Part shown: piece by piece, positions 12,859 to 34,501 of the stretch
Layout of the letters: the number at the start of each line of letters is the position of its first letter
How positions within the stretch are numbered: the stretch's first letter is position 1
NCBI GenBank assembly: GCA_002753745.1
Contig: PEAR01000002.1
Span: 1-47,100, forward strand
Origin: Candidatus Omnitrophota bacterium
GTDB lineage: Bacteria; Omnitrophota; Gorgyraeia; Zapsychrales; Fredricksoniimonadaceae
DNA length: 47,100 nt
Direction of reading: 5' to 3'
Made by a program: the position numbers and the translations under genes
Notes under the pieces: model-generated
The model's input: only the letters and a program-made list of their open reading frames with translations
Databases searched by the model: none
Told to the model about the DNA's origin: nothing

Positions 12859-12901
12859 AAAACCTCCCACTTAAAGATTAATAATGTTTGGGGGGACGAT
12901 G

Positions 12902-12930
12902 ATTATACTTAAGGGGTTGCAGGTTGTCAA
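12902..12930 (-). promoter_or_regulatory. Consensus sigma70-type promoter for recA
   Basis: The minus strand reads TTGACA (12930..12925), an exact 17 nt spacer, then TATAAT (12907..12902). This lies about 44 nt upstream of the recA ATG. Both hexamers are perfect consensus. Confidence 0.7.
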
Positions 12931-15237: not shown

Positions 15238-15728
15238 ATGTATTTTCGATAAATTGCCTGTACCGTCACCAAATTCTCAGGGCAAAAATCATGCCACATT
15301 AAATAACCAGGATCTGTTGGCATCATCCCGTTATTGGCGGTAAGAAATGTTTCGGTTAAAAAGCACTTAAATAAAAAAGAAATAAAATGCCCTCTTTCAT
15401 CCTGCTCCGGCAGAATCAACTCATTAACAGCAATTGGCACCTTGTCAAAAATAATGCCGGTTCCGATCTCTGTCTCAGCCACTTTCAGGACTCTAGTTTC
15501 CAACTTTTCCTTGAATCGAAGAATCCCTCCCGGCAGATGCCAGCCCTTACCCGCGCAGCCATCATCCCGCCATGACAGAAGAGTGCGTCCTCGCTCATCC
15601 TTGATTAATAAATCGACATTTACCAGAGGCGTAATTCTGCTCATCAGGCGAAACACCTCCTTAGGTAATCCGCGAGAAGGATCGCCGACCTGCTTATTCA
15701 AAATTGCTACAGCCTGAATAATATTCAT
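15234..15728 (-). CDS. Nudix-fold protein, GDP-mannose mannosyl hydrolase (Gmm/WcaH)-like, 164 aa
   Basis: TPLVNVDLLIKDERGRTLLSWR.......GWHLPGGILRFKEKLETRVLKVAETEIG parallels the Gmm layout (TPLVSLDFIV ... W.VPGGR). The Nudix box is degenerate (G-x5-E-x7-KV-A-ET-E-I-G). Confidence 0.5.
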   Translation of the reverse strand: MNIIQAVAILNKQVGDPSRGLPKEVFRLMSRITPLVNVDLLIKDERGRTLLSWRDDGCAGKGWHLPGGILRFKEKLETRVLKVAETEIGTGIIFDKVPIAVNELILPEQDERGHFISFLFKCFLTETFLTANNGMMPTDPGYLMWHDFCPENLVTVQAIYRKYI

Positions 15729-15755: not shown

Positions 15756-17291
15756 CTAATCAGCTTTACTTCCGAAAGAAAAGACCCGAAGGAACTCCCT
15801 CAAAGATAAGGCGGTGTCCTTTTTTATAACCATAAAATAAAAAAGCTGGAAAAACTTAACTGTCATATAGAAAAAGAGCAGCGCATACGCCGGAATTCTT
15901 TTAACGTTTTCTAAAGTTTGTGTCAAAGAAAATGACGCTGTATCTTTATTAGGACGAGCAAGATTCTTTCTAAAACGTCGGACATCCAGATAAAATGCAA
16001 AGATCGAAAATAAAATGTCTCGCCTGAGTTCTGCCTCACTCATCCCGGGCGGAACGTAAGAAAAAGGAGTCAACTTGAAAGGATTCTCGATAAAAGTCGA
16101 GACACTGTTAAAATTTTCGTATATACCAACAATATTTAACCGGTCTTCCCTCTTTGCAATCTCATATAATTCTGTCCCGGGGTAAGGTGTCGCGTTATTA
16201 AAACGAATCGTATCAATCTGCAAATCACGGGTCATTTTTAGGCAATCTCTGCGCGTCTTCATTGTCTCGCCCGGCAACCCAAAAATAAACGTTGCACTGA
16301 CAATGAATCCGATACTTTTCGCTATTTGCACTGCCTTAACACAATCGGCCACCGTCTCGTTTTTCTTGATCAGTCTAAGCACCTTATCGTCAGAACTCTC
16401 GATTCCAAAGAATATATATTTAAAACCAACAGCATATAATTCTTTAAGAATATCAAAGGAAACATGATCGGCTCTACCCTGGAAACTGAAAGTCATCTTA
16501 TTATTCAGTCCGCGAAGTCGGATTTCGGCAATCAGTTCAGAAAGTTTATTTTTATCAAAAAGAAAGTTATCATCAAGAAAAGCAATGAACCGCTTATTGT
16601 GTTTAACATAAAGCATTTCCAGGTCATCAACAACTTTCCTGGGATCACGAAAACGGTATTTCTTACCCGTAACAACCCGATTACTGCAAAAAATACAGTC
16701 ATAAGGACAGCCCCGGGAAGCCATGACAAATTCCAGATCATATTTCGGAGACTTAAAGAGATGATATGGAAAGGAGGGCAAATTATTAACGTCAACACTT
16801 TCTAATGACTTCGGATTATGAACAATTTGACCGTTCAACCGATAAGAAAGATTCGCTAAAGAATGCAGATCTTTCCCGCTCTTAAGCGCTCTATAGAGGT
16901 TAACAATGACATGATCGGCTTCGCCTCTGACAACATAATCAACTTGAAGAAAATCAAGCATTTCATCCGGCATTGCCGAGGGGTGAACCCCGCCGAATAC
17001 AACGACAGACTGCGGATAAAGTTGTTTAATGATTTTAGCCAATTCCAGGGATCTATTCAAATTGGCGGTTAAAACACTGAAACCAAAAATAAACGGCGGG
17101 TTTAATCTCTTAACAAGGTCAGCAATAACTTGGAGCGTATTTTCTTCAACCTGCTCATCAATAATTTCAGCCGTACAGCCAGCCTCAAGCAATACACTCA
17201 CCAAAGTTCCAATGCCGAGCGGAACAATGACGGGAAGGAATGGTTGAAAAGCTTTTAAGGTATTACGTGAAGAGGCATTAACGAAAATCAT
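15756..17291 (-). CDS. B12-binding-domain radical SAM enzyme (class B), 511 aa
   Basis: N-terminal Rossmann-like cobalamin-binding region (VVFGGVHPS, Y.VRGEAD), followed by SRGCPYDCIFC (C-x3-C-x2-C). Confidence 0.8.
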   Translation of the reverse strand: MIFVNASSRNTLKAFQPFLPVIVPLGIGTLVSVLLEAGCTAEIIDEQVEENTLQVIADLVKRLNPPFIFGFSVLTANLNRSLELAKIIKQLYPQSVVVFGGVHPSAMPDEMLDFLQVDYVVRGEADHVIVNLYRALKSGKDLHSLANLSYRLNGQIVHNPKSLESVDVNNLPSFPYHLFKSPKYDLEFVMASRGCPYDCIFCSNRVVTGKKYRFRDPRKVVDDLEMLYVKHNKRFIAFLDDNFLFDKNKLSELIAEIRLRGLNNKMTFSFQGRADHVSFDILKELYAVGFKYIFFGIESSDDKVLRLIKKNETVADCVKAVQIAKSIGFIVSATFIFGLPGETMKTRRDCLKMTRDLQIDTIRFNNATPYPGTELYEIAKREDRLNIVGIYENFNSVSTFIENPFKLTPFSYVPPGMSEAELRRDILFSIFAFYLDVRRFRKNLARPNKDTASFSLTQTLENVKRIPAYALLFFYMTVKFFQLFYFMVIKKDTALSLREFLRVFSFGSKAD

Positions 17292-17308: not shown

Positions 17309-17749
17309 TTACAGATTCTCAGTATGCTCATGAGTTCTAAAAGAAAACCATTTCTGGCCGAAATAATTATACACAGTAGAAATCACAAAACACACGCCCT
17401 GAGCCAAAACCGGATGAAGTCCAAACAAACTGACTGCTACAAACATCAGAGCAAAACCTAAAACCATACTTCCACCATAAACCACATAACACCTTAAATA
17501 TTCTCTTAGAAAATTGCCCTTAGTTCTAAAAACAAAGAATTTCTGACATAAATAAGTATTTGTCATGGCAAGAATATTAACGGGTATCAACAACACCAGA
17601 TAGTGCACTTGATGCTGCCACCACTGGTAGAAAAGAGCGTAAACGCCGACCATAAAAAGAACGTTCCACCCGCCAACCAGCAAATAACGCGTCAGGCGAT
17701 ATAATTCATCCTTGCTCATTCTAGTCAAAGTTAAGCTTTTCATCCTCAA
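17309..17749 (-). CDS. GtrA-family small membrane protein (polyprenyl-P-sugar flippase-like), about 136-146 aa
   Basis: Four predicted TM helices. L.RY.LVGG.N..F....Y..F at the N-terminus and F.F at the C-terminus are typical of GtrA. Sits immediately downstream of a GtrB-like GT2. Start is uncertain: TTG 17749, ATG 17743 or ATG 17719. Confidence 0.65.
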   Translation of the reverse strand: MRMKSLTLTRMSKDELYRLTRYLLVGGWNVLFMVGVYALFYQWWQHQVHYLVLLIPVNILAMTNTYLCQKFFVFRTKGNFLREYLRCYVVYGGSMVLGFALMFVAVSLFGLHPVLAQGVCFVISTVYNYFGQKWFSFRTHEHTENL

Positions 17750-18668
17750 TCACCAGCGGACGATTTTTTACCTGTGTCAATATAGCTCCCACATATTCGC
17801 CAACAATCCCTAGAAATAGTAATTGAACAGCGGAAAAGAAAAACAACCCTATAACTAAGGGAGCTAAGCCTAAATTAAACGTCTGCCAATAAAGCAGCTT
17901 ATAAACAAAATACGCAATGGCCACAAAAAAGCTAAAAAACGCTAAACAAAAACCAGTAAGTGCCGCTAAGCGCAGCGGTAGCTTGGAATGATTAACAAAC
18001 CCTGTCATTGCTATATCGTATAATGTAAAGAAATTATTCTTTGACCTGCCATGTTTGCGTTTATCTTGAATATATTCAAGTACCTTGCGTTTAAATCCAA
18101 TTTCAGCAATAAGTCCGCGGAAGTAAGGGTAAGGGTCATGATACCTTTTTAAACCATCCATAAACTTCCGGTCATACAAACCAAAACCTGTAAAATTCTG
18201 AATCATGTCGTTTGAATCTGAAAAGCTGGATAAAAGGCGGTAATAAAAGCTTCTTAGAACGGCCATTAAAAAGAATTCACGACTTTTTGATTGAACCGCG
18301 ATAACCACCCGAAAGCCAGCTTCCCAATGCCTGACAAAATCAAGAATCATCTCGGGAGGATTCTGTAAATCGGAACACATTCCAACCACAGCATCACCAG
18401 AGGCCTGAAGTAAAGCATTATACGTTGAACGTACTTGACCAAAATTATTGGCATTAAAAATAACTTTAAAGTTTTTGTCCTTCCGGGCAATACAGCGAAG
18501 CATTTCTCGCGTACCATCAGTAGAACAATTATCAGCGACAATTATTTCATAATCATATTCAGGTAGTTTTCCGAAAACAGCCACCAAACGATCATAGAAT
18601 TCCTGCAGATTTTCGTTTTCGTTAAAGCAGCCAGTAATAACACTAATCTTTTTCCGAATACTGTTCAT
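17721..18668 (-). CDS. Family 2 glycosyltransferase, polyprenyl-phosphate sugar synthase type (GtrB/ArnC/DPM1-like), 315 aa
   Basis: ISVITGCFNEN.NL, EIIVADNCSTDGT, SDLQNPPE, and two C-terminal TM helices ending in LGIVGEYVGAI (the GEY.GRI-like tail of GtrB/ArnC). Confidence 0.8.
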   Translation of the reverse strand: MNSIRKKISVITGCFNENENLQEFYDRLVAVFGKLPEYDYEIIVADNCSTDGTREMLRCIARKDKNFKVIFNANNFGQVRSTYNALLQASGDAVVGMCSDLQNPPEMILDFVRHWEAGFRVVIAVQSKSREFFLMAVLRSFYYRLLSSFSDSNDMIQNFTGFGLYDRKFMDGLKRYHDPYPYFRGLIAEIGFKRKVLEYIQDKRKHGRSKNNFFTLYDIAMTGFVNHSKLPLRLAALTGFCLAFFSFFVAIAYFVYKLLYWQTFNLGLAPLVIGLFFFSAVQLLFLGIVGEYVGAILTQVKNRPLVIEDEKLNFD

Positions 18669-19825
18669 TTTAAAACCACCACCTTATTTTTAACTCCCAT
18701 CAAACTTATTTCTTTGAGGATATCATCAGAAAATACCGCTACAGCAATGATAATTACCGGCAAATGATGCTTATTTATAATCTCCATAGGAGAGCATATC
18801 TGTTTACCAAATAAATATCCCCCCTGTTTATGTTTATCATTATCAACGAACATAACGATTTTACATTGATTTAATCGAGATGTCGCCAACAAACGACTTG
18901 CATAATTACCGGCGCCCCAGACAATTATCTCTTCTTGACTTTGTGCCAACCTATCAATAATCACATCAACATTATGAATCTGAGATGTCTGGGAAACATA
19001 CTGTGAGAGCATTTTTGCAGAATGATTACGCCATTCGGAAGCTTCAGCGCACTCATTTGAATATGCACAAAAGATCATCGGCTGCTCAACATTAGAGAAC
19101 TTTACTGTCGTTTTAACAAGATTAACAACTCTAAACCCATATGCAAGACCCAAATTTATTAAAGAAGTTTCATCAAAATGGTTAACATGCTCGCAATTAA
19201 AATAATCGAAAGGAATTGAATCAAACTGGTGATACCGAGAAGCGTCCGGAACACAAACCAAGAAGAATCCATTGCGTCTTATTAATGACTGAAGTCTTTT
19301 CATGATGCCGGGCAATTCATAAATATGTTCAAGCACCCCGGACATAATGGCAACATCATACTTTTTATCGACAGAAAGATCGAAAATGCTTAAAGTAACG
19401 CCCACAATCCCCTTTTCACAAGCATTAGCTATGCATTTTTCAGATGGATCAAGGGCTGTAAGGTTAAAGAAACCTAAGCCTTGCAACTCATACAATAAAC
19501 TTGAATTGCCGCTCCCTATATCAATAATATTTGCTGATACATCACAGATAACTGAGCTTACCCACTTTGCACGATCTTTATAAATATGTGAATTGCCCGG
19601 AATATAGGTCATCTCATACTTAGACATACTGGCGTAATATGCATCAAAATCATCTTGTTTTAAGGAAATATCTGCATAAACGAACCCACAATGACAACAA
19701 GAAACAACATCGTATTCACCTGGCATAAAATGTATGCTTGCAAAAACAAACTTTTGCGTATGCAAAACATCACCAGTTAAATTGCGACATATCGGACAAG
19801 AACGATTTAAATTTCTTATTTTCAT
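18665..19825 (-). CDS. Class I SAM-dependent methyltransferase with N-terminal Cys4 zinc ribbon, about 386 aa
   Basis: CPICRN ... CCHCGF zinc-ribbon pairs. Motif I is IIDIGSGNSSLL. The C-terminal domain is Rossmann-like (IIVWGAGNYASRLL ... FVDNDKHKQG). The architecture recalls NDP-hexose C-methyltransferases. I prefer ATG 19825 to the TTG at 19840. Confidence 0.7.
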   Translation of the reverse strand: MKIRNLNRSCPICRNLTGDVLHTQKFVFASIHFMPGEYDVVSCCHCGFVYADISLKQDDFDAYYASMSKYEMTYIPGNSHIYKDRAKWVSSVICDVSANIIDIGSGNSSLLYELQGLGFFNLTALDPSEKCIANACEKGIVGVTLSIFDLSVDKKYDVAIMSGVLEHIYELPGIMKRLQSLIRRNGFFLVCVPDASRYHQFDSIPFDYFNCEHVNHFDETSLINLGLAYGFRVVNLVKTTVKFSNVEQPMIFCAYSNECAEASEWRNHSAKMLSQYVSQTSQIHNVDVIIDRLAQSQEEIIVWGAGNYASRLLATSRLNQCKIVMFVDNDKHKQGGYLFGKQICSPMEIINKHHLPVIIIAVAVFSDDILKEISLMGVKNKVVVLK

Positions 19826-19861
19826 ATGGCGTTCGTCCAACCTTAAGTAAAAGCAAAAAAC

Positions 19862-21496
19862 TTAAATTAAGTTGAAATAAACCGCCCAGTCTTTCCAGAA
19901 TGAGCTTGTATTAATTATAGATCGAAAGTTGCCTTTATGTACTAGAGCTCTATCAAGCTCACCCTTTCCTTCATAAGCTTTTGCTAAACAATAATAGGCA
20001 AAAGCATGATCTGAATAAACATTTACAAGATTACTGAAACTCTTAATACATTCATCATAATTTCCTATACGCAAATTATAATTGTGAATAAAATTAACAT
20101 GTAAATTCATCATATACGCCTGCTTTTCAATATGCTCAGGCGTGTAACTTGGTGTTCGGATATTACACTTTGTTAAACTAGGGCAGAAAAAACTATCATT
20201 CACTAAATAACCATTTTCTTTACATTCATTATAAAGACGACTGCCAGGAAGCGGCAATGCAATCAAGAAATAAACCCAGCTGAAACCAATTTCTTCCAGC
20301 GTTTCAAGCGTTTCGTTGCGATGCTCATCCGTTTCTCCAGGTGAGCCAATAACAATATTAGTAAGGGCACTGATGCCGAATTTACGAAGGCTATGTACAG
20401 CGCACTTTGCCTCATCCTTAGTAACAGGTTTCTGAATAATATGTTTCAATACAAAATCTGAACCGGATTCTAAACTTGTATACTGAAATGTATTCCCTAA
20501 TTGTGATAAAAGTTGAGCCACCTCATCATCAATATTCCGCATAAGAATGGCAGGAAAATTTACATTAATCTTTAATTTAACATACTCTTTAAGAATTAAT
20601 TTGGCTCTCACCTTATCAAGAAGAAATGAGTCGTCACAAACAAATAATTCAGTCAAACCGTCATCCTCAACCATTTTTCTCACATCATTAACAGCCCGTT
20701 CAGCACTTAAAAATCGCACTTTCTTGCCATGAACATTAAACCCCGCACAAAAGTTGCAATTAAAAGGACAGCCTCGAGATAGGTAAATAATTCTTGATAC
20801 CATTGTTCGTTTGAAGTTCTTTTTGTAAACCGCTCCCTTAATCTTAGGCAAATTAAAATTTGAAAGATCAACATAGCTAAAATCAATAGGCGGAATATTA
20901 TCAAGTTCTGAAACAGTGTAATTAGCAGGTTTAATTCCGAGCTTAATACTTTCCTTTGTAACAAAAGCATTATTAGATCTCACATGCGCTCGACTATCTT
21001 CACTGTCGATTAAGCGCAAAAAGGGAATTTCTCCCTCGCCAAAATTAACGGCATCAATATCATTCTTTAACGCAATTTCTTCGCTTAAAACTGTTGCCAG
21101 ATTACCGCCGACAATAAGCAACGTATTCGGGGCCACTTTCTTTATTGTTGCCGCCAGACCGTCCAACAGGTGATACCCGACATTAAACATAAGTGAAATA
21201 CCAACAATGTCAGGATTAAACTCTCCCGTTTCTGATTCTATATACTTTCGAAAATACTCCTGTCCATCTCTAATAACATTCCCGTGCTGATATTCACTGA
21301 CCAAGTGATTATTTATATCTACAATTCTAAAATTAACGCAATTCCGGGCATATTTCTTTACATATGCACATATAGAAAGCAGGCCATAGGGAAGATTAAC
21401 AATAGACCGGGTATCAAATAAATATTTCTGCGCACCGGGATCCAACAAATCCGGGATAGGCATCGTAAACAATAATACTTTCTTGCTTTTATTCAC
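19862..21496 (-). CDS. B12-binding-domain radical SAM enzyme (class B) with TPR-like C-terminus, 544 aa
   Basis: N-terminal B12-binding-like region (IVGGNLATV, D.VNFGEGE), then SRGCPFNCNFC (C-x3-C-x2-C). The C-terminal AYYCLAKAYEGKGELDRAL is TPR-like. Confidence 0.8.
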   Translation of the reverse strand: MNKSKKVLLFTMPIPDLLDPGAQKYLFDTRSIVNLPYGLLSICAYVKKYARNCVNFRIVDINNHLVSEYQHGNVIRDGQEYFRKYIESETGEFNPDIVGISLMFNVGYHLLDGLAATIKKVAPNTLLIVGGNLATVLSEEIALKNDIDAVNFGEGEIPFLRLIDSEDSRAHVRSNNAFVTKESIKLGIKPANYTVSELDNIPPIDFSYVDLSNFNLPKIKGAVYKKNFKRTMVSRIIYLSRGCPFNCNFCAGFNVHGKKVRFLSAERAVNDVRKMVEDDGLTELFVCDDSFLLDKVRAKLILKEYVKLKINVNFPAILMRNIDDEVAQLLSQLGNTFQYTSLESGSDFVLKHIIQKPVTKDEAKCAVHSLRKFGISALTNIVIGSPGETDEHRNETLETLEEIGFSWVYFLIALPLPGSRLYNECKENGYLVNDSFFCPSLTKCNIRTPSYTPEHIEKQAYMMNLHVNFIHNYNLRIGNYDECIKSFSNLVNVYSDHAFAYYCLAKAYEGKGELDRALVHKGNFRSIINTSSFWKDWAVYFNLI

Positions 21497-22643
21497 ATTT
21501 ACCTTTAGTTATCGCATCTTTATCAGCTATGGCGTACAAAACAGTTTCGGTCTGATTATCGGTGTAATGACGCATAAAGAATTTATACCCAGGCACGAAA
21601 GATCTTAACAATAACAACAAATCAAACAAGTCTTCACGCCGGTGATAAACACTAACCGCTAATTTCGGCATCCACTTCTTGATCGTCTGTTCAGCACCAA
21701 GAATCGCATTATGCTCGGCACCCTCAATGTCCATCGATACATACGTCACTCGCCGGCCATTCAAAATATTGTCTATTGTATCAACTTCCATTGAATCAGC
21801 TGATAAAGAGTTGTCTATAATTTCAGAAATACGTGAGCCCCCTTCACGTCCAGCTTGAAAATGAATAATCTGATGTTTATGCCATGCGCCCATGTTATGT
21901 AGCTCTATCTTCTTTATACCGTTAAGGGAAATAACCCCCTCTAAAGTTAAGAGAGTTTTCTTGTCTGGTTCAAATGCAATTATCCCATCATAAACTTTAT
22001 TCGTACGACGATTAAACTCAATAATAGCATTGCCTTTAAAAGCTCCAACATCTAAAAAGACCTCATTGTCTAATAAACTTACAATATCATCATCAAAGTA
22101 CTCTGTTTTAGATTTGATTTCGGAATATAAACTGAAATCACCTGAAATTTTGGCATTAAGGACATTAGCGTAAACACTCTTAGAAAAATCATCTGCCAAC
22201 AAGGAATAGGCCTCATTGAACTGAGACTCATATTCAAGATAATACGGGTAATTAATTTTCTCGCCACAAACTTCAAATCCACGCAGATACCAGAAAGGAT
22301 TCTTTTCACAAGCTCTACTTAACTGAGAAAAAATTGGCTCCTTATATTGAATCCCCGTTGCCACCACAATCTGATACTTTCCACCATTGCTAATAAATTT
22401 ATTCTTAATGCCTTCGTAACTATAAACAGGCAATCCAATATGAGACATCCCCTGCTTTGATAAATCATTATCACAAAAACACACCGGCTCAATGCCGTGT
22501 TGGCGTAAATACATCAAGACGCACCATGCAATTTCACCAGCTCCCCAAAGAATTACCGGCAACGCTGTAGACTTGATTAAAGCGAATATCGCCTCTTCTT
22601 CATGCGCGACATTCTTTATAAGCCCAGAAAGACTATTCAACAT
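21489..22643 (-). CDS. FkbM-family SAM methyltransferase with N-terminal Rossmann-like domain, 384 aa
   Basis: FLDVGAFKGNAIIEF ... IAFEPD ... VSMDIEGAE matches the FkbM layout. The N-terminal VILWGAGEIAWCVL ... FCDNDLSKQG resembles the C-terminal domain of the 18665..19825 methyltransferase. Confidence 0.7.
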   Translation of the reverse strand: MLNSLSGLIKNVAHEEEAIFALIKSTALPVILWGAGEIAWCVLMYLRQHGIEPVCFCDNDLSKQGMSHIGLPVYSYEGIKNKFISNGGKYQIVVATGIQYKEPIFSQLSRACEKNPFWYLRGFEVCGEKINYPYYLEYESQFNEAYSLLADDFSKSVYANVLNAKISGDFSLYSEIKSKTEYFDDDIVSLLDNEVFLDVGAFKGNAIIEFNRRTNKVYDGIIAFEPDKKTLLTLEGVISLNGIKKIELHNMGAWHKHQIIHFQAGREGGSRISEIIDNSLSADSMEVDTIDNILNGRRVTYVSMDIEGAEHNAILGAEQTIKKWMPKLAVSVYHRREDLFDLLLLLRSFVPGYKFFMRHYTDNQTETVLYAIADKDAITKGKCE

Positions 22644-23656
22644 CGCAATTTCCTCGCATCAAAGCCATCGATATTGTCTTTAATATAATGGCCGCTTTTA
22701 TAAAAATCGCACCGCGAACAGGAAACATTATCCTGTTTACGGTCCTCGAGTTGCATTAGCATGAACTTATGCCATGCCTCTGACAGCCACAATCCCTTCA
22801 AATCAATACGATTAACGTTACCAAGATTAGTTCCCCCGTTAAAATCGATACAACAGGGCGCCACATCGCCGTTACTGCGTACCGCCATCGTGGTGAATGC
22901 CATTGGGCAAACGCGCCGGTGTTGCGATTCAGCGTGCATATCCTGGACTGCGGCGGCGGTGTCCTTGTACAGAGCATCTGTAAATCTAGCACCCTCCGTC
23001 ATGGTCCAGTTATGCGGTTTATCAATATAGATCTCGTCGGCCACATCCTGGTACATCTTGATAAAATCATCATTACCCGGACCGTATGTATCCAGCATTT
23101 TTACAGCGACAAAAGGGCGTTCACGGCCGGCCAGTTTCTTAAGCTCCTGCAACATGCTCAAATTATCATGGATGGAACGAATATCCAATTTTGAGCCTGT
23201 AATATCCTCATGTTTCTGTTGATCGGGCGAATACACGGAAACTCGCAAATAATCCAACTGATGATCCACCATTCCCTGCGCGATCTTTCTAGTCAGTAAA
23301 GAAGCATTCGTCGTCGTCTCGACCCTTTCCGCGATATCAGCATGCTTCGCCATTTTAAGCATCTCGGCAAAATCAGGATTAAGAAGCGGTTCGCCATATA
23401 AACTAAGCTTAAGCACTTTAAGTTTTGCCCCGCTCCAAGACCGCAGCTGCTCAATGATCTTCCTGTACAAGCTCAAATCCATATTAAGCCGAAGACGCGA
23501 TAAAAAGTTTTCTTCTTTTAAACTTTGAAAACAATGAACACATCTGAAATTACACAAACTGGAAGGCTCGATCAAAACTGTAAAGGGCTTCTTTAAAGGC
23601 AAAACATCAACAAGGTTTTGCCTGTTGGTCGCATGTAATTGAGTATACGAGATCAT
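22637..23656 (-). CDS. Radical SAM enzyme with SPASM/twitch-like C-terminal Cys motifs, 339 aa
   Basis: SSLCNFRCVHC (C-x3-C-x2-C), GEPLLNP, C-terminal C-x12-G-x4-C (CPMAFTTMAVRSNGDVAPC) plus CSRC. Tandem paralog of the next gene. Confidence 0.8.
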   Translation of the reverse strand: MISYTQLHATNRQNLVDVLPLKKPFTVLIEPSSLCNFRCVHCFQSLKEENFLSRLRLNMDLSLYRKIIEQLRSWSGAKLKVLKLSLYGEPLLNPDFAEMLKMAKHADIAERVETTTNASLLTRKIAQGMVDHQLDYLRVSVYSPDQQKHEDITGSKLDIRSIHDNLSMLQELKKLAGRERPFVAVKMLDTYGPGNDDFIKMYQDVADEIYIDKPHNWTMTEGARFTDALYKDTAAAVQDMHAESQHRRVCPMAFTTMAVRSNGDVAPCCIDFNGGTNLGNVNRIDLKGLWLSEAWHKFMLMQLEDRKQDNVSCSRCDFYKSGHYIKDNIDGFDARKLRC

Positions 23657-24678
23657 ATTCTCAGTTTATCGACAGGGAACCCGTCAACATTGTCCTCTTG
23701 GGGAAACAGTTTAAACCAGTCACAATTAGCGCAAATGCGATTTTCGTGCTTGCGTCCTTCCAGAAGCATCTTCCGAAACGCGAACATATTGTCACCCCGC
23801 CACAAATCTTGCAATGAAGTATCATTCGCATTTCCGATTTTTGTCCCTTTGGCCGGGTCATGAGTACACATTAGACAGTCACCAATGTTATTGATGACCA
23901 TCGACATGAACGGCCGTGAGCAAACAGCGCGTCCAGTATTAAGACTAGCCTGATATTCACGTCGTGACTGGAGCTCCTTGACAGGATCGTTGTAATACAT
24001 ATTCACAAGGTCATTCCCGCTGTAATTCGTCGCATTATGGACTTTTTCCAGACCAATTTCGTCCGCTATCCCCTGATATAAATCAAAGAATATTGTGTTT
24101 TCGTCGCTGTATGTATCAAACATCTTAACAAAGATATACGGCTTTTCGGCGCCTGAGCGATCACGTGTATCGCGCAACTGTTTAATGTTTGCCTGGATCT
24201 TTGCGACAGAGCAATCAGTCCTTGTAACTTCGCGATGATGTTTGTCCTGTGCGGCATAAATAGAAAAACGAATAGCATCCAGGCCGTACGTAATCAATTT
24301 AACCGCGATATCAGGAGTTAAAAGCGACCCGTTTGAGAATGTATCCACCCGTTCGGCTACTTCCGCCTCTTTAGCAATCCTGACCATCTCACAAAAGTCA
24401 GGATTAATAAAAGGCTCGCCAAGCATGGCCAACCTCAAAAGCTTAAGTTTTGGACCTGGCCACTCCTTTAACTCCAGGATCAACTTCTTAAACAAAGCCA
24501 TATCCATATGCTTAAGCGGCTTAAGATCATTGCGCGTATTATCACTGCCATGAACACAAGGAGTGCATCGGAAATTACACAAATTTGTCGGCTCAATAAA
24601 AAGCGACAAAGGCTTTTGTAACGGCAGCATCTCGCGCAAAGGCTTGCGATCATGTGAAATAATGGTAAACAAACTCAT
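23653..24678 (-). CDS. Radical SAM enzyme with SPASM/twitch-like C-terminal Cys motifs, 341 aa (paralog of 22637..23656)
   Basis: TNLCNFRCTPC, GEPFINP, C-x12-G-x4-C (CSRPFMSMVINNIGDCLMC) plus CANC. Aligns along its full length with the neighbouring paralog, at roughly 40% identity by eye. Confidence 0.8.
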   Translation of the reverse strand: MSLFTIISHDRKPLREMLPLQKPLSLFIEPTNLCNFRCTPCVHGSDNTRNDLKPLKHMDMALFKKLILELKEWPGPKLKLLRLAMLGEPFINPDFCEMVRIAKEAEVAERVDTFSNGSLLTPDIAVKLITYGLDAIRFSIYAAQDKHHREVTRTDCSVAKIQANIKQLRDTRDRSGAEKPYIFVKMFDTYSDENTIFFDLYQGIADEIGLEKVHNATNYSGNDLVNMYYNDPVKELQSRREYQASLNTGRAVCSRPFMSMVINNIGDCLMCTHDPAKGTKIGNANDTSLQDLWRGDNMFAFRKMLLEGRKHENRICANCDWFKLFPQEDNVDGFPVDKLRI

Positions 24679-25737
24679 TTAAACAAAATCCTCTGGCGTA
24701 AAGACCTCAGACCAATGAACAGGCAACGGTTTGCCATAAAACTTACTCATATAATTCTTGATAAAATTACTGTCTTCGCCGGACAGACAAAGAGGATTAA
24801 ATTCTTTAAAATGTTTAATACTCATGCCCCTTTTAAGAATAGCAGCAAAGCTTTCTTCAAAAATATTGCCCAGCGAGATATGAATAAATCCGCATGGCAG
24901 AATATCTCCATACTGAGTCAAATGCAGGTTTGAATTAACACTCCCACAGCCCCTTTCAATACCGTACGTGGGAAAAGTGTCGCGATGCAAAGATGGATAT
25001 TGTTGATTAACGTGCTTCATGTAAGCCGCGTCATCAGCATCAATCAACATATCATGCTTACCTTCCCACTCGCCGACAGCATGAGCAATCATGACATCAA
25101 CCGTAAAACCATTCTCCTGGGCAAACTTGGCCATTTCAAGCGTTCTGTCAGTACGACAATTCTGATGGGTGATGCAGGTTTGTATCACCACACTCAACCC
25201 GGCTTCCTGGGCGTTAAACAATGCCTCTTTTGCTTTAAGGTAAGCTCCTTCTTTATTTCTGTTCATATCGTGTTTAGCTGCGTCAAAATCATCGATACTG
25301 ATTTTTACCTTATCCAACCCCCAGCTTCTCAGATCCCGGGCCATTTCTTTGGTCAAAAAATACCCGTTGGTGCTCATTGATAAATGAAACCTGTCCGGCT
25401 GCAATGCCTTGATAACGCTCTGAAGATTTTTTAATATTAATGGCTCACCACCAGAAATGACAAACTGACACAGCCCTAACTCATGGGCTTCATCGCTAAA
25501 GCGCCTCAAATCATCCGGAGAAAGAGCTCTTTCCTTATGCGCAAATCTCGTCGTAAAACAATGCCGGCATTTTAAATTACATGCCAGGTTAAAACCGATA
25601 TCAACTACAGGAGTAGCCAATCCCGCCTTAAATCGATCCGCAATCTTGAGGATCTTCTCAAAAGCAAGAGGCTTCTCTTTTTTAAGTCTTTCGCGACGTG
25701 CGGCCTCAATTTGCTGCTTTTCAATTGATCGACTCAT
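24679..25737 (-). CDS. Radical SAM enzyme (MoaA/NirJ/PqqE-like core) with twitch-like C-terminal motif, 352 aa
   Basis: LACNLKCRHC, ISGGEPL, and C-x12-G-x4-C (CGSVNSNLHLTQYGDILPC). Confidence 0.8.
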   Translation of the reverse strand: MSRSIEKQQIEAARRERLKKEKPLAFEKILKIADRFKAGLATPVVDIGFNLACNLKCRHCFTTRFAHKERALSPDDLRRFSDEAHELGLCQFVISGGEPLILKNLQSVIKALQPDRFHLSMSTNGYFLTKEMARDLRSWGLDKVKISIDDFDAAKHDMNRNKEGAYLKAKEALFNAQEAGLSVVIQTCITHQNCRTDRTLEMAKFAQENGFTVDVMIAHAVGEWEGKHDMLIDADDAAYMKHVNQQYPSLHRDTFPTYGIERGCGSVNSNLHLTQYGDILPCGFIHISLGNIFEESFAAILKRGMSIKHFKEFNPLCLSGEDSNFIKNYMSKFYGKPLPVHWSEVFTPEDFV

Positions 25738-25747
25738 ATTTAATTCA

Positions 25748-27547
25748 CTAGTAATCTAAATGCTTGACTATCATATTTGAATAAAACTCTTCCCTCTCAA
25801 GGAGAGGGCTCATATCTTCAAGAGGCTTTGAAACGATCGTGCCATCCGCATGATGAAACGACATAACACGTGGTGCCCGCACCTCATCAGGAATAATCAT
25901 AACATCACACACCACCGGTCCCTGCATATCTAAAACTTGGCGAATCTTCTGTTTAAGATCTTTTTGATCGGTAATGCGTACCGTAGCTATCCCATATGCC
26001 CCGACAACCTTTGAAAGATCCGGCAAAGTAAGCCCGCTACTTTTATCGGCAACGGTCACACGCTCAAAGCATCCTCGTTGAGAAACGCGAATCGATGCAT
26101 ACCCGTCATTATTCATCACAAAGAATTTAATCGGCAAGTTTAACCGCCTAATAGTTTCCAGTTCCTGAATATTCAGCTGGAACCCACCATCTCCGTCGAT
26201 ACAAACTGTCGGCCTGTTCCCGCTGGCAAGGCACGCCCCGATCGCCGCTGGCTGGGCAAAACCCATGGCTCCGGTGCCCTTATTATGAAACACCCGCTGT
26301 CCGGCTTTCACCTTGAACGCCGTAAGAAAGATTTCACAGGCATTGCCGGCATTGCCAGGCAAAATCACATAATCGCTAGTAAGTTCCCGGGATAAAATAT
26401 CGGAAAAAGCATAAACACTAACCTTCTCAACTTCAGCATGATGCTCAGGTAGAACAAAAGGATAACGCTCTTTCCATACCCGGCACCTGTCGATCCAGGT
26501 TGAACAGTCCCGCGCTTGAAGCGTCCCCTTTCTAGCCAGCACCCTGTGCATAAAAAGGCCAGCGTCCATCACAATCGGCAGATCAATCGAAGGGCCGATC
26601 TTATTAATCTCAGCGGGGTCAATATTCACCATAACTTTCTTTGCCCCTCTTGCTAGCTTATCAGGGGCATACGCGATTAAGGCCATATCTAGCCTCGCAC
26701 CCAAAATCAATAAAAGATCGGAGTTCTGTAAAGTAAAGTTAGCACTTCGAGAAGCAATCATTCCTGGCATCCCGAAATGCAAATCGTGTTCTGATGAAAT
26801 CAGATCAACTCCAAGTCGAGTTGTAAGAACAGGAACGCCGAGAGCATCGATAAACTTTAAGAAATCACCTTGAGCCCCTGCCAACCGAATCCCGTTACCT
26901 GCCAGAATTACCGGCCGTTCCGCTTTCTTAAACAATTCAATAAATGACGCCACCAGGTCTTCTTTAAAACGATCATCTGAAGCCTTTTGATTCTCGGCCG
27001 GCTCATATCCTTTCAAGTCTTTAGGATCAACATGCGCAACTTGAACATCCAGCGGAATATCAAGCCATACCGGCCCAGGCCGGCCAGTCTTGGCTGAATG
27101 TACAGCTTTTTCTAAATGATACCTAACCATCGCTGGATCAGTAACAGTAACCGCATATTTTGTTATTGCTTTAACCAACGATACAATATCGATCTCCTGA
27201 ACACCTAATTGCCTGACCCCGGAGTTGCCACTGATATCCGCGCGCTTAACCTGACCGGAAATAAAAAGACATGGCGTTGAGTCTTGCCAGGCAGCCGCAA
27301 CACCCGTAATCGCGTTAGTCCCTCCAGGGCCAGTGGTTACCAAAGCAACCCCCAGATTATTAGTAACCCGCGCATATGCTTCTGCGGCAATTGCGCTAGC
27401 TTGTTCGTGAAGATTGCCAACAGGTTCAATACCCTCGCAATGCCCCAAAGAATCCACCAAATGCATCGCTCCACCGCCAGGAAGCATAAAAACATGCCTT
27501 ACTCCTAATGACGCTAAATAATGAAACACATAATCCGAAAGCTTCAT
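25748..27547 (-). CDS. Thiamine-diphosphate-dependent enzyme, acetolactate synthase large subunit-like (YerE-like candidate), 599 aa
   Basis: Three-domain ALS layout. The N-terminus reads HVFMLPGGGAMHL ... EQASAIAAEAYAR ... LVTTGPGGTNA. The ThDP motif is IDGDGGFQ-x-VMNNDGY (GDG ... NN). Confidence 0.85.
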   Translation of the reverse strand: MKLSDYVFHYLASLGVRHVFMLPGGGAMHLVDSLGHCEGIEPVGNLHEQASAIAAEAYARVTNNLGVALVTTGPGGTNAITGVAAAWQDSTPCLFISGQVKRADISGNSGVRQLGVQEIDIVSLVKAITKYAVTVTDPAMVRYHLEKAVHSAKTGRPGPVWLDIPLDVQVAHVDPKDLKGYEPAENQKASDDRFKEDLVASFIELFKKAERPVILAGNGIRLAGAQGDFLKFIDALGVPVLTTRLGVDLISSEHDLHFGMPGMIASRSANFTLQNSDLLLILGARLDMALIAYAPDKLARGAKKVMVNIDPAEINKIGPSIDLPIVMDAGLFMHRVLARKGTLQARDCSTWIDRCRVWKERYPFVLPEHHAEVEKVSVYAFSDILSRELTSDYVILPGNAGNACEIFLTAFKVKAGQRVFHNKGTGAMGFAQPAAIGACLASGNRPTVCIDGDGGFQLNIQELETIRRLNLPIKFFVMNNDGYASIRVSQRGCFERVTVADKSSGLTLPDLSKVVGAYGIATVRITDQKDLKQKIRQVLDMQGPVVCDVMIIPDEVRAPRVMSFHHADGTIVSKPLEDMSPLLEREEFYSNMIVKHLDY

Positions 27548-28029
27548 ACGATTCCTTTGCTTTTCACAAGAATGAGGATATCCAGCAATTCTCTTACCGC
27601 ACCACGACCGCCGGAAGCTTTCATCACTAAATCCGCATGATCTATAGCAGCCGGGTGCGCTGAAGCGGGAACCGCAGATAATCCAGCCAGATCAAGAGCC
27701 TCTATATCATTAATGTCATCTCCCATAAAACATACAGCCTCGAGCGCAAGTCCGTTCTTTTGTGCAAAAACTTTCAATGACGCAGCCTTATCTTTGCTCC
27801 CTTTATAAACATCAACAATTCCCATCTTACGCGCGTAACGATCAACCAATGGAGTATCTTCACCCGAGATAAGGGCAAAAATAAGCCCCGCTTTACTTGC
27901 CCGGGAGATCCCCATAATGTCGAGAAATGAAAACTGTTTAAATTCTTCGCCTTCAGGCCCCCAAATAAAGGTGCCATCGGTTAGAACGCCGTCAACATCG
28001 AGCGCAACAGCCTTGATATTTTTCATCAA
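27544..28029 (-). CDS. HAD-superfamily phosphatase, KdsC/YrbI family, 161 aa
   Basis: IKAVALDVDGVLTDG ... ISG ... Y.G..DK ... FMGDDINDIEAL...GLSAVPA.AHP.....ADLV....GGRGAVRE is nearly colinear with Kdo-8-P phosphatase. The substrate is not assignable. Confidence 0.8.
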   Translation of the reverse strand: MMKNIKAVALDVDGVLTDGTFIWGPEGEEFKQFSFLDIMGISRASKAGLIFALISGEDTPLVDRYARKMGIVDVYKGSKDKAASLKVFAQKNGLALEAVCFMGDDINDIEALDLAGLSAVPASAHPAAIDHADLVMKASGGRGAVRELLDILILVKSKGIV

Positions 28030-28049: not shown

Positions 28050-30440
28050 TTATAAACCAGACTTAATAAATAACTCTCGATCTTTCGCATCATCCTTGAA
28101 AATTGTATCCGCCAATAACCAAAGAAAGATTACAAACGCCATAAACCCCTGAGCCGCAGAAAACCAGAATAGAAAGGTCAAAATCGATGAATAAAAATAA
28201 AACCGAACAGTATTTTTTCCTGCTGCTAAAGGAACGGCTTTATACGCCAGATTCGCAACATAAACCGGAACAGACTTGGTGTTGACTTCTGCCCTCCACG
28301 AAGGATGCCAAATATCACTATATAAGAGCCAGACTGGGCGCCCAACAGGAACGACCGTCTCAATGACCACCTCGTTAGGAGAGAATAATTTAACATGATA
28401 TGGGAGATCCAGTCGACTATTTAATCCCAAATCTGTCGACGACACTGTATCGTCCATTCTAAGTGTCGGCTGGCCATCATAAGAAGTCAGAACAGGGACA
28501 TCTCCAGCGTAACCAGGATCAGCAATAACATCTGCCGCCTTCTGCGGAGAACTAAAATAGACAGCCGACGTAAAGAACTGAACCTTATCTTTAGTCACGC
28601 CGGAAATCTTAAGAACAGAAGGAGTATTCAAATTAAAATTAAAAGAATACGGCGTGCCTGCGTTGATGTTCCCTGAAGCATTTAAAGGAATATGCATGTA
28701 TGCTCTTAGATAATAATCTAAGGGTTTAGCCCATGTATCCGTACGTAAAACTGTAGAAAAACAATCACGCCATAAAAAATTACCCGCAGAATTATAAATA
28801 GCACCTTTCTTTTGTAAAAGAACCGCAAGGAAATCAATCCGGTCGTCAGTATCTAAATGTTCACAATTACGAGAAGCTCTCCACGGTAAAGGCTGCCAAG
28901 TCAATGACTTCAAATCCTTTTGCGATACAGAAACTGTGCGTAAGAGAGACTGATCAACGCGATACGCATAAACATCAATCATCTGAGCCAGGAACCATAA
29001 TACGCCGATAATTAACAATGCTTTCTGCGTCCGAATAAAGATCATCATGGTGCAGAAAATGGCAAGCACTCCGGAAATAAAAATAGGTATATAGAAATTA
29101 AAATTAAGGGCGTTCCAATCAAAAGACGGTAATCCTCCGGTCACCATTTCTCCCAGAATGAAGTCCCTCAATACAGCGTCATTCCGTAATTGACATAAAA
29201 AGAAAGTAACGCCCATAAAGAAGACAGCTGTAAAAAAGAAAAAAACAGAACGCCGCCAATGTTCATCTGCCACCCGCTTGTTGTCTGCACAAAAAATTGC
29301 CTCGAATCCAAACCCGGCCAGAAAGCAGAGCCCAAACTTGACGACAGGCGCCAACAAACATAAATGACGATAATAATTCATTAAAGGCCAGAAATAATAC
29401 AAAACGACCGCCAGTACAGAGCCCATAGTTAAAAGAAGCATTGCAACAGTCCACCCGATCCATACCATCGCCTCCTTCCGAGGGCTTAAACATAAAGCAG
29501 CAAGTACACAGGGTAAAGCAAACAACCCCATGTACAACGTAAAGTCTAATGCCGGAGATAACCGCAAAGCAAGTTCATTCCACTTATTAAGATGGGTATT
29601 ACCGGCATAGGTAAGAAATGTCTGGAGAGAAACTGTGCCGTCAGGATTTCGCAAATAATTGCCAAAAATGGTAAAAGGATCCATATTCAGGCGCATATTA
29701 ACCAGAATCAATGCTGCCAGCGCAAGAATGGATAGAACACAAATCCGAAAAGACGCACCAAATTTGATCAATTTGAATTGCTTCTCATAATACTCACGTC
29801 TAATGCAGATATCAAAAACATAAAGAACAAAAACAGCCAGCAAGCTTACCGTGATCGTATACGGATTGGTCTCAAGGCTCTGGACCCCAAAAAAATATGC
29901 TGCCAGAAAAAACCAGCGCCATTGCCCGCTATCCAGGAAACGATATAAAAGCCAGATAACCAGCGGAACAACATACAAAATACAAATCCAGAACATTTGA
30001 TTGTACGAAATCATGCAGCTTGCCACACACACCATCACAAAAAGACGCGGGGCTAAAGCAGCGAAATATCTTCCCGACAATAACCATACACCGGAGAGAA
30101 AAACAAAATGATAAAAGAACATCCCAACATAGAACAAGGACAAGAAGTCAAAGAATCTTAACAATTTCCACATAAAGAAAAACGCATCAAAAAGGAAACC
30201 TGGACCGTTTAAATAAAACATCCTTGACCCATGCGTTAAAAAAGGAGTCCATAAGGAAACCTGACCGTATTCAACAATCGCGTTAAGACGGTAATATTCG
30301 CCGAAAAAGAAAGCTAATGGATCGTGGATGACAATATGTCGAGCGGAAATATCCCAAAAGAGGAAAAGCAGTTCAATTAAAACCAGGGCAGAAAATGCAG
30401 CAAATGTTCTATGGCGAAACAACCGGTGAAATATTTTCAT
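28050..30440 (-). CDS. Large polytopic membrane protein, YfhO-like / putative GT-C glycosyltransferase, 796 aa
   Basis: At least 12 hydrophobic segments in the first roughly 490 aa. A soluble domain of about 250 aa follows, then one terminal TM (ILTFLFWFSAAQGFMAFVIFLWLL), which is the YfhO architecture. The early loop G-Q-V-S-L-W-T-P-F-L-T-H-G resembles the YfhO G..PLW.P...G motif. The family call is tentative. Confidence 0.5.
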   Translation of the reverse strand: MKIFHRLFRHRTFAAFSALVLIELLFLFWDISARHIVIHDPLAFFFGEYYRLNAIVEYGQVSLWTPFLTHGSRMFYLNGPGFLFDAFFFMWKLLRFFDFLSLFYVGMFFYHFVFLSGVWLLSGRYFAALAPRLFVMVCVASCMISYNQMFWICILYVVPLVIWLLYRFLDSGQWRWFFLAAYFFGVQSLETNPYTITVSLLAVFVLYVFDICIRREYYEKQFKLIKFGASFRICVLSILALAALILVNMRLNMDPFTIFGNYLRNPDGTVSLQTFLTYAGNTHLNKWNELALRLSPALDFTLYMGLFALPCVLAALCLSPRKEAMVWIGWTVAMLLLTMGSVLAVVLYYFWPLMNYYRHLCLLAPVVKFGLCFLAGFGFEAIFCADNKRVADEHWRRSVFFFFTAVFFMGVTFFLCQLRNDAVLRDFILGEMVTGGLPSFDWNALNFNFYIPIFISGVLAIFCTMMIFIRTQKALLIIGVLWFLAQMIDVYAYRVDQSLLRTVSVSQKDLKSLTWQPLPWRASRNCEHLDTDDRIDFLAVLLQKKGAIYNSAGNFLWRDCFSTVLRTDTWAKPLDYYLRAYMHIPLNASGNINAGTPYSFNFNLNTPSVLKISGVTKDKVQFFTSAVYFSSPQKAADVIADPGYAGDVPVLTSYDGQPTLRMDDTVSSTDLGLNSRLDLPYHVKLFSPNEVVIETVVPVGRPVWLLYSDIWHPSWRAEVNTKSVPVYVANLAYKAVPLAAGKNTVRFYFYSSILTFLFWFSAAQGFMAFVIFLWLLADTIFKDDAKDRELFIKSGL

Positions 30441-30471
30441 GCTAAAATCCGGGTTAGTGGTAAAAAAACTG

Positions 30472-34054: not shown

Positions 34055-34501
34055 CTAAAAAGGAGACGTAGACGCGGCGGCTGCGATTGATGATGTCAGT
34101 CCGGTTCTATTAACTATGCCCTGAAAAACACTTGTAGCTGGAGCCATAAACTGAGTAATACCTGCATCATTTACTACCATTGAAACATGGTTTTGTGTTG
34201 CGGCATTTTGCCTTGCGGTAATAATTAAGGAAGTTGCAGCTGCAGTAAATGAATACGCGAATCTTGAGTTTTGAGGTGTGGTTACACCTAAAGCCGCCTG
34301 ACTTGCACAAAGTGTGAAATTATTTGTTGCTTCATAACAAGTTGCTGCAGCCCTTTTGATAATCCCAAAATACTGCATCGCTTCAGCGCCTTGAGCCGCA
34401 TTGGTTTGGGCCGCAAGCCTGGGAAGTGCCAACGTTGCCATAATACCCAAGATAACAATAACAATAATGATTTCGATGAGAGTAAAACCTTTGTTATTCA
34501 T
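34055..34501 (-). CDS. Type IV pilin / pseudopilin, major-pilin copy A, 148 aa
   Basis: Prepilin leader and cleavage/methylation motif MNNKG|FTLIEIIIVIVILGIMA with Glu at +5. GGAG RBS. 89% identical (132/148 by hand alignment) to the 39242..39688 product. Confidence 0.9.
   Translation of the reverse strand: MNNKGFTLIEIIIVIVILGIMATLALPRLAAQTNAAQGAEAMQYFGIIKRAAATCYEATNNFTLCASQAALGVTTPQNSRFAYSFTAAATSLIITARQNAATQNHVSMVVNDAGITQFMAPATSVFQGIVNRTGLTSSIAAAASTSPF
34055..34501 (-). repeat. Dispersed direct repeat, copy 1 (pilin gene duplication)
   Basis: Aligns at the nucleotide level over the whole CDS with 39242..39688. Includes a perfectly identical run of at least 110 nt (34371..34480 = 39558..39667). 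Flanking non-coding DNA is unrelated. Confidence 0.9.

Follow-up and report, generated by a model that had tools for sequence, protein, structure and literature searches.

What do three radical S-adenosylmethionine (SAM) enzymes, encoded side by side in a member of the Candidatus Omnitrophota, act on: a carbohydrate or a peptide? The question is raised by a stretch of 47,100 nucleotides (positions 1 to 47,100 of contig PEAR01000002.1, assembly GCA_002753745.1; hereafter the window), in which three adjacent open reading frames (ORFs), here called RS-C, RS-B and RS-A, encode members of this superfamily. Our analysis of these proteins and of the genes around them indicates that the three are probably oxygen-independent tailoring enzymes of a nucleotide-sugar pathway, and not peptide maturases. 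The genes, in the order of their transcription, are:

24679-25737, minus strand: RS-C, radical SAM enzyme of 352 aa, CX3CX2C at C53/C57/C60
23653-24678, minus strand: RS-B, twitch-type radical SAM enzyme of 341 aa, CX3CX2C at C34/C38/C41
22637-23656, minus strand: RS-A, twitch-type radical SAM enzyme of 339 aa, paralog of RS-B, CX3CX2C at C35/C39/C42

An earlier note on this DNA had described the three ORFs from the letters alone, and its description held throughout. The ORFs have the sizes it gave, are intact and are translationally coupled: RS-C and RS-B abut with a gap of 0 nt, TAA being followed by ATG, RS-B and RS-A overlap by 4 nt (ATGA), and RS-A shares 7 nt with an FkbM gene (21489-22643). 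The N-terminal CX3CX2C motifs begin at residues 53, 34 and 35, as listed above, and the three C-terminal CX12GX4C strings that the note quoted are exact. RS-A and RS-B, which it called paralogs with an added CX2C, are 38% identical (E 1e-85) and have this motif, extra to the core, at C313/C316 and C316/C319; the kinship of RS-C to both is distant and was seen at the profile level only (profile-profile probability 96.6%). A motif scan found CX2CX5CX3C in none of the three proteins, which accordingly do not show the seven-cysteine SPASM pattern, again as the note had said. The Pfam scan gave 84.2, 49.4 and 48.9 bits for PF04055 in the three proteins (cut-off 29.5), and 46.3, 43.4 and 22.7 bits for SPASM (cut-off 21.5), the latter model exceeding its cut-off without seven cysteines because this hidden Markov model (HMM) also covers twitch domains. 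The radical SAM motif and domain signal are far beyond chance.

Conservation of the cysteines was counted in aligned orthologues from 45 related loci of many phyla (RS-C n=47, RS-B n=18, RS-A n=49). The CX3CX2C cysteines are kept in 45/47, 17-18/18 and 48/49 orthologues, and outside this motif there are four further conserved cysteines in RS-B and RS-C and five in RS-A, indicating a single auxiliary set. In RS-B the auxiliary cysteines C253, C271, C316 and C319 are invariant in the alignment, as are C250, C268, C313 and C316 in RS-A. Segment 251-328 of RS-B aligns to BtrN (PDB 4M7S/4M7T) without a gap in HMMER, and by count its four auxiliary cysteines match twitch-domain cysteines 169, 187, 232 and 235 of BtrN, which are the ligands of its auxiliary cluster. 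The auxiliary ligands that the earlier note had proposed are therefore present on a proper alignment, as four conserved cysteines, and since there is a single four-cysteine set the domain is of the twitch type and not a complete SPASM domain. RS-A and RS-B are predicted to be twitch-type enzymes with one auxiliary cluster. RS-C keeps, in 43-47 of 47 orthologues, C264, C282 and C317, which fall on C253, C271 and C316 of RS-B in a profile alignment, plus C194 from the core, and this other arrangement of four cysteines plausibly fits a single auxiliary cluster as well. The fifth conserved cysteine of RS-A, C269 (46/49), forms a Cys-Cys pair with the ligand C268 (window 22849-22854) and might donate a hydrogen atom or act as a ligand in its own right; the matching position of RS-B is Thr.

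BtrN is the 2-deoxy-scyllo-inosamine dehydrogenase of the butirosin pathway and the founding twitch radical SAM enzyme, and DesII, which is not known to have an auxiliary cluster, is the thymidine diphosphate (TDP)-4-amino-4,6-dideoxy-D-glucose deaminase/dehydrogenase of the desosamine pathway. These two were the only PDB sequence matches of RS-B below 1e-3 (1.4e-10 and 2.8e-4) and the best ones of RS-A (3.7e-9 and 8.6e-7). A fold search with an AlphaFold2 (AF2) model of RS-B (predicted local distance difference test, pLDDT, 93.9) placed BtrN first (E 9.2e-14, template modelling score, TM, 0.74 on target) and DesII at ranks 2-7, with SuiB, BlsE and SkfB behind. BtrN (PDB 4M7T) has the four-cysteine pattern CX12GX4C...CX2C in common with RS-A and RS-B, and like them it is a small single polypeptide with no peptide-binding domain and a carbohydrate-like substrate, predicted in their case. 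The differences are considerable: significant similarity is confined to the twitch domain in RS-B (35.8 bits) and to the core in RS-A, the fold alignment has an overall identity of ~17-18%, the BtrN chains of 269-270 aa are exceeded by RS-A and RS-B by ~70-90 residues, and BtrN is encoded in an aminoglycoside cluster, whereas a cytidine diphosphate (CDP)-sugar glycan pathway surrounds RS-A and RS-B. DesII (PDB 8HZV), the second-best sequence and fold match, acts on a nucleoside diphosphate (NDP)-4,6-dideoxyhexose, the substrate class predicted for RS-A and RS-B, but is longer than they are at ~490 aa. We rejected RS-A and RS-B as BtrN orthologues, as a single domain aligns significantly and aminoglycoside genes occur in no locus, and RS-B as a member of the DesII family, for which its 26.7 bits fall well short of the 450 required (TIGR04426). 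Because these membership tests fail, the three proteins stand outside the BtrN and DesII families; they are of the same kind as the carbohydrate-tailoring radical SAM enzymes that have, or are related to proteins with, a twitch domain.

RS-C was less informative. The fold neighbours of its AF2 model (pLDDT 88.5) at TM ~0.5-0.6 are SkfB, SuiB, viperin-like proteins, PqqE, MoaA and BlsE, a set that is not diagnostic, and its best PDB sequence match is MoaA. Among the homologues found, 144 for RS-B at E<=1e-5 (identity down to 36-37% among the 120 matches listed) and 918 for RS-C, none carries a functional name. The top NCBIfam names for the three proteins are tungsten-cofactor maturase, AhbD, NirJ2, MoaA and N_Twi_rSAM, all reflecting core or twitch similarity only. 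We give hardly any credence to the idea that the enzymes are cofactor or metalloenzyme maturases (for a tungsten-cofactor oxidoreductase, an AhbD/NirJ-type heme or a MoaA-type product): TIGR04317 is indeed the best NCBIfam match of RS-A and RS-B, AhbD, NirJ2 and MoaA (94-105 bits) come up for RS-C, and the MoaA match in the PDB agrees with them, but the scores lie three- to five-fold below curated cut-offs (100 against 380 for TIGR04317, 105 against 500 for AhbD), cover the radical SAM core only, and oxidoreductase, heme or molybdopterin genes are found in none of the loci.

SPASM peptide maturases such as anSME, PqqE, SuiB and SkfB share with the three proteins a radical SAM core, the opening CX9-15GX4C element and a SPASM score above the cut-off. 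RiPP-type (ribosomally synthesised and post-translationally modified peptide) or protein maturases acting on a ribosomal peptide, or on a pilin or flagellin polypeptide, would also agree with the many sub-threshold NCBIfam matches to peptide maturases, with the presence of SkfB, SuiB, EpeE and anSME among the fold neighbours, and with a pilin gene ~8 kb upstream. The loci themselves make this very improbable. When 583 intergenic ORFs of 15-90 aa within 8 kb were clustered over the 45 loci, no conserved small ORF emerged, the largest family spanning 3 closely related loci. The window leaves at most 22 nt between consecutive genes from the phosphatase to the GT2 gene described below. No PqqD/RiPP recognition element (RRE) domain (PF05402) was detected in RS-A, RS-B or RS-C in the Pfam scan, and the 33-52 residues before CX3CX2C are too few for an N-terminal RRE domain. 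The RiPP reading is unsupported because there is no conserved small ORF, the gaps are tight and there is no RRE. The three proteins also differ from the SPASM maturases in having no second set of auxiliary cysteines and no precursor gene, and their cassette may have pilin genes beside it, flagellin genes or neither of the two, but CDP-sugar and thiamine diphosphate (ThDP) enzyme genes accompany it almost without exception. The earlier note had seen no precursor peptide nearby and had preferred carbohydrate to peptide enzymes. Both statements stand, the second on the absence of a small ORF and an RRE, on BtrN and DesII as best relatives, and on a CDP-deoxyhexose/YerE-like gene cassette.

That cassette was recognised among 83 loci gathered by three context look-ups and by scanning a single genome from each species. 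A blastp census, unbiased clustering and checks of contig edges left a set of 45 non-redundant loci (L001-L056 and the window), so that the conservation of genomic context that the earlier note had asked about is real: the same cassette recurs in more than 10 phyla, including Desulfobacterota, Lentisphaerota, Elusimicrobiota, Bacillota, Verrucomicrobiota, Nitrospirota and Gammaproteobacteria. Its usual order is glucose-1-phosphate cytidylyltransferase, CDP-glucose 4,6-dehydratase, RfbH, a short-chain dehydrogenase/reductase (SDR), NeuB-like synthase, KdsC-like phosphatase, ThDP enzyme, FkbM, RS-C, (RS-B), RS-A and a C-methyltransferase-like methyltransferase, then either GT2/GtrA or an SDR. 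In the relatives of the window the phosphatase gene adjoins the NeuB-like gene, and its product frequently carries a fused GmhA-like SIS isomerase domain. ThDP enzyme genes occur in 41/45 loci, NeuB-like genes in 34/45, RfbH in 28/45 and FkbM in 37/45, and most absences are accounted for by contig ends: in the four loci with no ThDP gene the sequence is cut within ~1 kb of the cassette, and most of the loci that lack a NeuB-like gene extend for less than 1 kb upstream of it. The cytidylyltransferase, the CDP-glucose 4,6-dehydratase and RfbH of L001 all score at equivalog cut-offs.

Pilin genes lie beside the cassette in the window, L001, L006 and L019, flagellin genes in L003, L005, L026 and L035, and a flagellin gene and a pilin-like ORF are both nearby in L015; many other loci have GT2/GtrA there. 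Such varied acceptor and transfer neighbours fit a portable sugar-supply module, and not enzymes tied to one protein substrate. A full-text search of the accessible literature on radical SAM enzymes in surface-glycan and nucleotide-sugar topics found no description of this cassette.

Single loci show irregularities of their own. L044, from a Eubacterium metagenome-assembled genome (MAG), has a 100-aa remnant of the ThDP enzyme (3915-4214) beside intact FkbM, RS-C and RS-A genes, and NeuB is absent too; the cassette is perhaps in decay there. We considered, from L031, L038 and L044, whether the radical SAM duo might occur independently of the ThDP enzyme, and rejected this, as the ThDP C-terminus lies at the edge of L031, L044 has the remnant and L038 is truncated upstream. 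In L003 (Thiorhodococcus mannitoliphagus) a B12-binding radical SAM gene is placed between RS-C and RS-B, and an insertion sequence (IS) remnant (Zn_ribbon_InsA, 46 aa; L003:9326-9466) lies between that gene and RS-B.

The arrangement that the earlier note called a trio proved to be the less common one. RS-C, RS-B and RS-A do stand together in 15/45 loci, the window included, but the other 30/45 have a duo of RS-C and RS-A. A neighbour-joining tree groups the 44 RS-A sequences and the 14 RS-B sequences into two monophyletic sister clades, with homologues of ~30% identity outside. A methyltransferase of the window type (at least 40% identity) was found in 10/15 trio loci and 0/30 duo loci, and the first B12-binding radical SAM enzyme of the window, at the same threshold, in 6/15 and 0/30. 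Because of this sister-clade tree, and because these accessory genes are confined to trio loci, the duo is considered ancestral and the trio derived, the duplicated twitch enzyme having been gained together with extra methylation capacity. A TylC3-like C-methyltransferase of a different family is present in 22 loci, nearly all of them duo loci, and directly follows RS-A in L020. A scheme with one C-methyltransferase per twitch paralog was rejected, as trio loci still carry a single such methyltransferase.

The wider family points to the same kind of substrate. A profile search with RS-A/B at E<=1e-30 found 1,289 representatives of clusters made at 50% identity, a number that rises to 16,893 when the threshold is relaxed to E<=1e-10, and none of the ~1,300 RS-A/B-type representatives is of known function. 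Distant homologues (~30% identity) occur in a second cassette, found in L063-L068, L075 and L082 (e.g., L075:5454-15026), that comprises a cytidylyltransferase (RfbF), a CDP-glucose 4,6-dehydratase (RfbG), an RmlC-like 3,5-epimerase, a TylC3-like C-methyltransferase and an SDR, followed by a twitch radical SAM enzyme, two FkbM proteins, a GT1 glycosyltransferase and a CmcI-like O-methyltransferase. Its hosts are Bacteroidota, candidate phyla radiation (CPR) bacteria, an Asgard archaeon and Methanoperedens MAGs. From this content we conclude that the common denominator of the family is a CDP-6-deoxyhexose pathway with FkbM.

In the window the radical SAM genes are part of an island that runs from a pilin gene to recA:

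34055-34501, minus strand: type IV pilin with prepilin N-methylation motif and Ser/Thr-rich C-terminus, presumed glycan acceptor
28050-34042, minus strand: three multi-pass membrane proteins, candidate pilin glycosyltransferases, directly downstream of the pilin gene
27544-28029, minus strand: KdsC/YrbI-family HAD phosphatase, ulosonate-phosphate type (TIGR01670, 129.4 against a cut-off of 106.95)
25748-27547, minus strand: ThDP-dependent enzyme of acetolactate-synthase fold, YerE/JanthE-like, proposed carboligase (Pfam TPP_enzyme N/M/C)
21489-22643, minus strand: FkbM-family methyltransferase with NeuD/PglD_N-like N-terminal domain
19862-21496, minus strand: B12-binding radical SAM enzyme that is probably a C-methyltransferase, accessory to the trio variant
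18665-19840, minus strand: SAM methyltransferase with C-methyltransferase C-terminal domain (Methyltransf_23 / Methyltransf_14)
17721-18668, minus strand: GT2 glycosyltransferase of GtrB/ArnC/PgfS type (polyprenyl-phosphate sugar synthase) with two C-terminal transmembrane helices
17309-17749, minus strand: GtrA-family small membrane protein, flippase-associated (domain scan)
15756-17291, minus strand: second B12-binding radical SAM enzyme, BchE/HpnJ-like, below all family cut-offs
15234-15728, minus strand: Nudix-like protein of 164 aa, weakly similar to GDP-mannose mannosyl hydrolase
14356-15237, minus strand: short-chain dehydrogenase/epimerase (NDP-sugar reductase or epimerase type), whose orthologue follows RS-A in Firmicutes loci
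12982-14346, minus strand: RfbH (E1), CDP-4-keto-6-deoxy-D-glucose 3-dehydrase (NF011936 equivalog, 724.3 bits against 423)

All genes from 12982 to 34501 are on the minus strand, with recA, recX and alaS following downstream, and the island encodes five radical SAM enzymes in total, the second B12-binding one occurring in the window only among the 15 trio loci. The membrane proteins, in order of transcription, have 561 aa (9 transmembrane helices), 633 aa (8 helices, PMT_2 GT-C and TPR domains) and 796 aa (13 helices). Equivalog-level RfbH marks a predicted 3,6-dideoxyhexose route. The best PDB match of the HAD phosphatase is KdsC (2.7e-30), and that of the ThDP enzyme is JanthE (8rph, E 8.6e-120), ahead of the best acetolactate synthase (1.6e-86); with JanthE closest and RfbH alongside, the ThDP gene is predicted to encode a YerE-like carboligase. 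Between recA and the pilin gene (window ~13000-36000) the island has a GC content of 0.35-0.44, against ~0.45-0.52 in its flanks, and its three radical SAM proteins share 75-79% identity with their counterparts in MAGs of Victivallaceae, Syntrophaceae and Elusimicrobia, a level that suggests horizontal acquisition. Promoter-like sites in the window were at chance level and terminator-like sites not clearly above it, and the operon structure of the island is based on gene spacing only. A perfect sigma-70 consensus (TTGACA-17-TATAAT, minus strand 12902-12930) just upstream of recA (11794-12870) would show where the island operon stops and give recA a promoter of its own. The pilin gene has a paralog at 39242-39688 that is ~90% identical, with differences mainly in the C-terminal third, and between the two lie four minor-pilin-like genes, an RsmE-like RNA methyltransferase gene (36616-37344) and a gene for a 652-aa TPR membrane protein (34674-36632).

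The gene content of the window and of the 44 related loci suggests a pathway. CDP-glucose would be converted to CDP-4-keto-6-deoxyglucose and, by RfbH, to CDP-4-keto-3,6-dideoxyglucose, while the NeuB-like synthase and KdsC-like phosphatase would make a 3-deoxy-2-ulosonic (alpha-keto) acid. The YerE/JanthE-like ThDP enzyme may then decarboxylate the ulosonic acid and join the resulting acyl branch to C4 of the keto sugar. We propose an ulosonic acid as donor because the NeuB-like, phosphatase and ThDP genes are constantly adjacent and the phosphatase is assigned to the KdsC family, and because of the frequent GmhA-like fusion and the donor logic published for YerE-like enzymes. Tailoring by RS-C, RS-A, RS-B (in the trio variant), FkbM, the C-methyltransferase-like enzyme and the B12-binding radical SAM methylases would follow. 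In the window, GT2/GtrA would place the finished sugar on polyprenyl phosphate, and the GT-C-like membrane proteins encoded beside the pilin gene would transfer it to pilin. All of this is inferred from gene content: what the substrate is, which types of reaction occur and in which order, and that pilin receives the sugar.

For the radical SAM steps, the [4Fe-4S] cluster bound by CX3CX2C would cleave SAM, and the 5'-deoxyadenosyl radical would take a hydrogen atom from a carbinol or an unactivated C-H of the CDP-linked sugar, in its ring or its acyl branch, with the fully cysteine-ligated auxiliary [4Fe-4S] cluster of the twitch domain accepting or shuttling an electron. The most likely single guess for RS-A and RS-B is a dehydrogenation of BtrN/DesII type, from secondary alcohol to ketone. 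They could alternatively catalyse an epimerisation, with C269 of RS-A as hydrogen donor, or an elimination.

The radical SAM enzymes might instead act before ligation, modifying or building the ulosonic acid donor by deoxygenation, C-C bond formation or carbocyclisation and leaving the CDP-hexose ring alone. In most loci their genes come straight after those for the NeuB-like synthase, the HAD phosphatase and the ThDP enzyme, the ThDP enzyme itself is nearly constant (41/45, as above), and the neighbours of RS-C include the decarboxylase BlsE and the C-C-forming MoaA. We nevertheless judge this unlikely, since distant RS-A/B homologues occur in CDP-6-deoxyhexose cassettes with neither ThDP nor NeuB genes, the closest relatives of solved structure have a cyclitol or an NDP-hexose ring as substrate, and the window has all three radical SAM genes and no NeuB-like gene.

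Several observations weigh against sugar tailoring as we have set it out. Judged by sequence, the CDP-hexose ring, the side chain and the keto-acid donor are all possible targets. RS-C has no specific sugar-enzyme neighbour in the fold search, and the peptide maturases SuiB, SkfB and anSME are among the fold neighbours beyond BtrN and DesII. None of the three proteins reaches an NCBIfam equivalog or subfamily cut-off, and their clades have no member of demonstrated activity. No reductase family of E3 (RfbI/DdhD) type is conserved near the RfbH/E1 genes in the 45 cassette loci, leaving the electron donor for 3-deoxygenation unaccounted for. Finally, genes for a NeuB-like synthase, a cytidylyltransferase and a 4,6-dehydratase are absent from the whole 47-kb window, the only fully covered locus that lacks the whole NeuB-like, RfbF and RfbG set; the phosphatase gene is retained, and its upstream neighbour is a membrane-protein gene in place of the NeuB-like gene. 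The local pathway is consequently either incomplete or dependent on genes elsewhere.

This last point, together with the low GC content of the island, would suit an island that was acquired horizontally and of which a non-functional or incomplete remnant is left, in which the enzymes are real and the pathway is not running. We think this quite improbable, given that the 14 ORFs of the island are all intact and show tight or translational coupling, every catalytic cysteine is retained, and the missing genes could be elsewhere in the genome.

Tailoring of a nucleotide sugar, the reading we prefer, connects the cassette to the branched sugars made by YerE-like enzymes. YerE, ErwE, MMAR_2332 and MyGE attach acyl branches derived from alpha-keto acids, and the physiological acceptor proposed for such enzymes is CDP-4-keto-3,6-dideoxy-D-glucose, the donor being made by a co-encoded enzyme (PMC9306805). 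JanthE, the closest PDB match of the ThDP enzyme in the window, has been described as a YerE-like aldehyde-ketone carboligase (PMC12188165; PMC12247030). The cassette resembles the pathways of yersiniose, erwiniose, caryophyllose and 'gastriose' in its YerE/JanthE-like ThDP enzyme, in the route to CDP-4-keto-3,6-dideoxyglucose, and in encoding beside the ThDP gene an enzyme pair able to make an alpha-keto acid donor, which follows the logic of PMC9306805. It differs in that pyruvate aldolases supply the donor in the published clusters, whereas the cassette would rely on a NeuB-like synthase and a KdsC-like phosphatase, and in that the published clusters, as described in PMC9306805 and PMC12247030, have no radical SAM genes, whereas the cassette adds two to five. 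The acceptors also differ, being lipopolysaccharide (LPS) in the published systems and apparently pilin or flagellin here.

Pilin glycosylation islands adjoin pilA in Pseudomonas aeruginosa (TfpO / TfpW type). The island in the window is like them in having a pilin gene followed by polytopic membrane proteins, one of them a GT-C (PMT_2) protein, and genes for a lipid-linked sugar; its sugar pathway is entirely different, and the likeness is one of gene arrangement.

If these predictions are taken together, the product might be a previously undescribed, higher-carbon branched sugar, remodelled without oxygen by two or three new twitch radical SAM enzymes and displayed on the pili and flagella of anaerobes in more than 10 phyla. 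We put this forward tentatively, as somewhat less than an even chance. A NeuB-type ulosonic side chain would be joined by the YerE-like ThDP enzyme to a CDP-3,6-dideoxy-4-ketohexose, and remodelling could include installation of a ketone, epimerisation at an unactivated carbon, deoxygenation or even carbocyclisation, in which case RS-A, RS-B and RS-C would found new reaction classes among the sugar radical SAM enzymes.

To our knowledge the characterised radical SAM enzymes that act on sugars are few (BtrN, DesII, AprD4, BlsE and a handful more), and every one of them belongs to an antibiotic pathway. The cassette is a well-defined and widely distributed enzymology lead, and not a categorically new system. 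Its cultured carriers include Thiorhodococcus mannitoliphagus DSM 18266 and Clostridium chromiireducens, which have the trio, and Syntrophus buswellii DM-2, which has the duo, making the question directly testable. Two to three radical SAM enzymes of the predicted sugar type form a conserved surface-glycan module in at least 45 loci, and solving their reactions would reveal new deoxysugar chemistry, would show whether the 'unifying scheme' published for acyl-branched sugars extends to a donor of a new kind, and would identify a glycan of pilins and flagellins in anaerobes.

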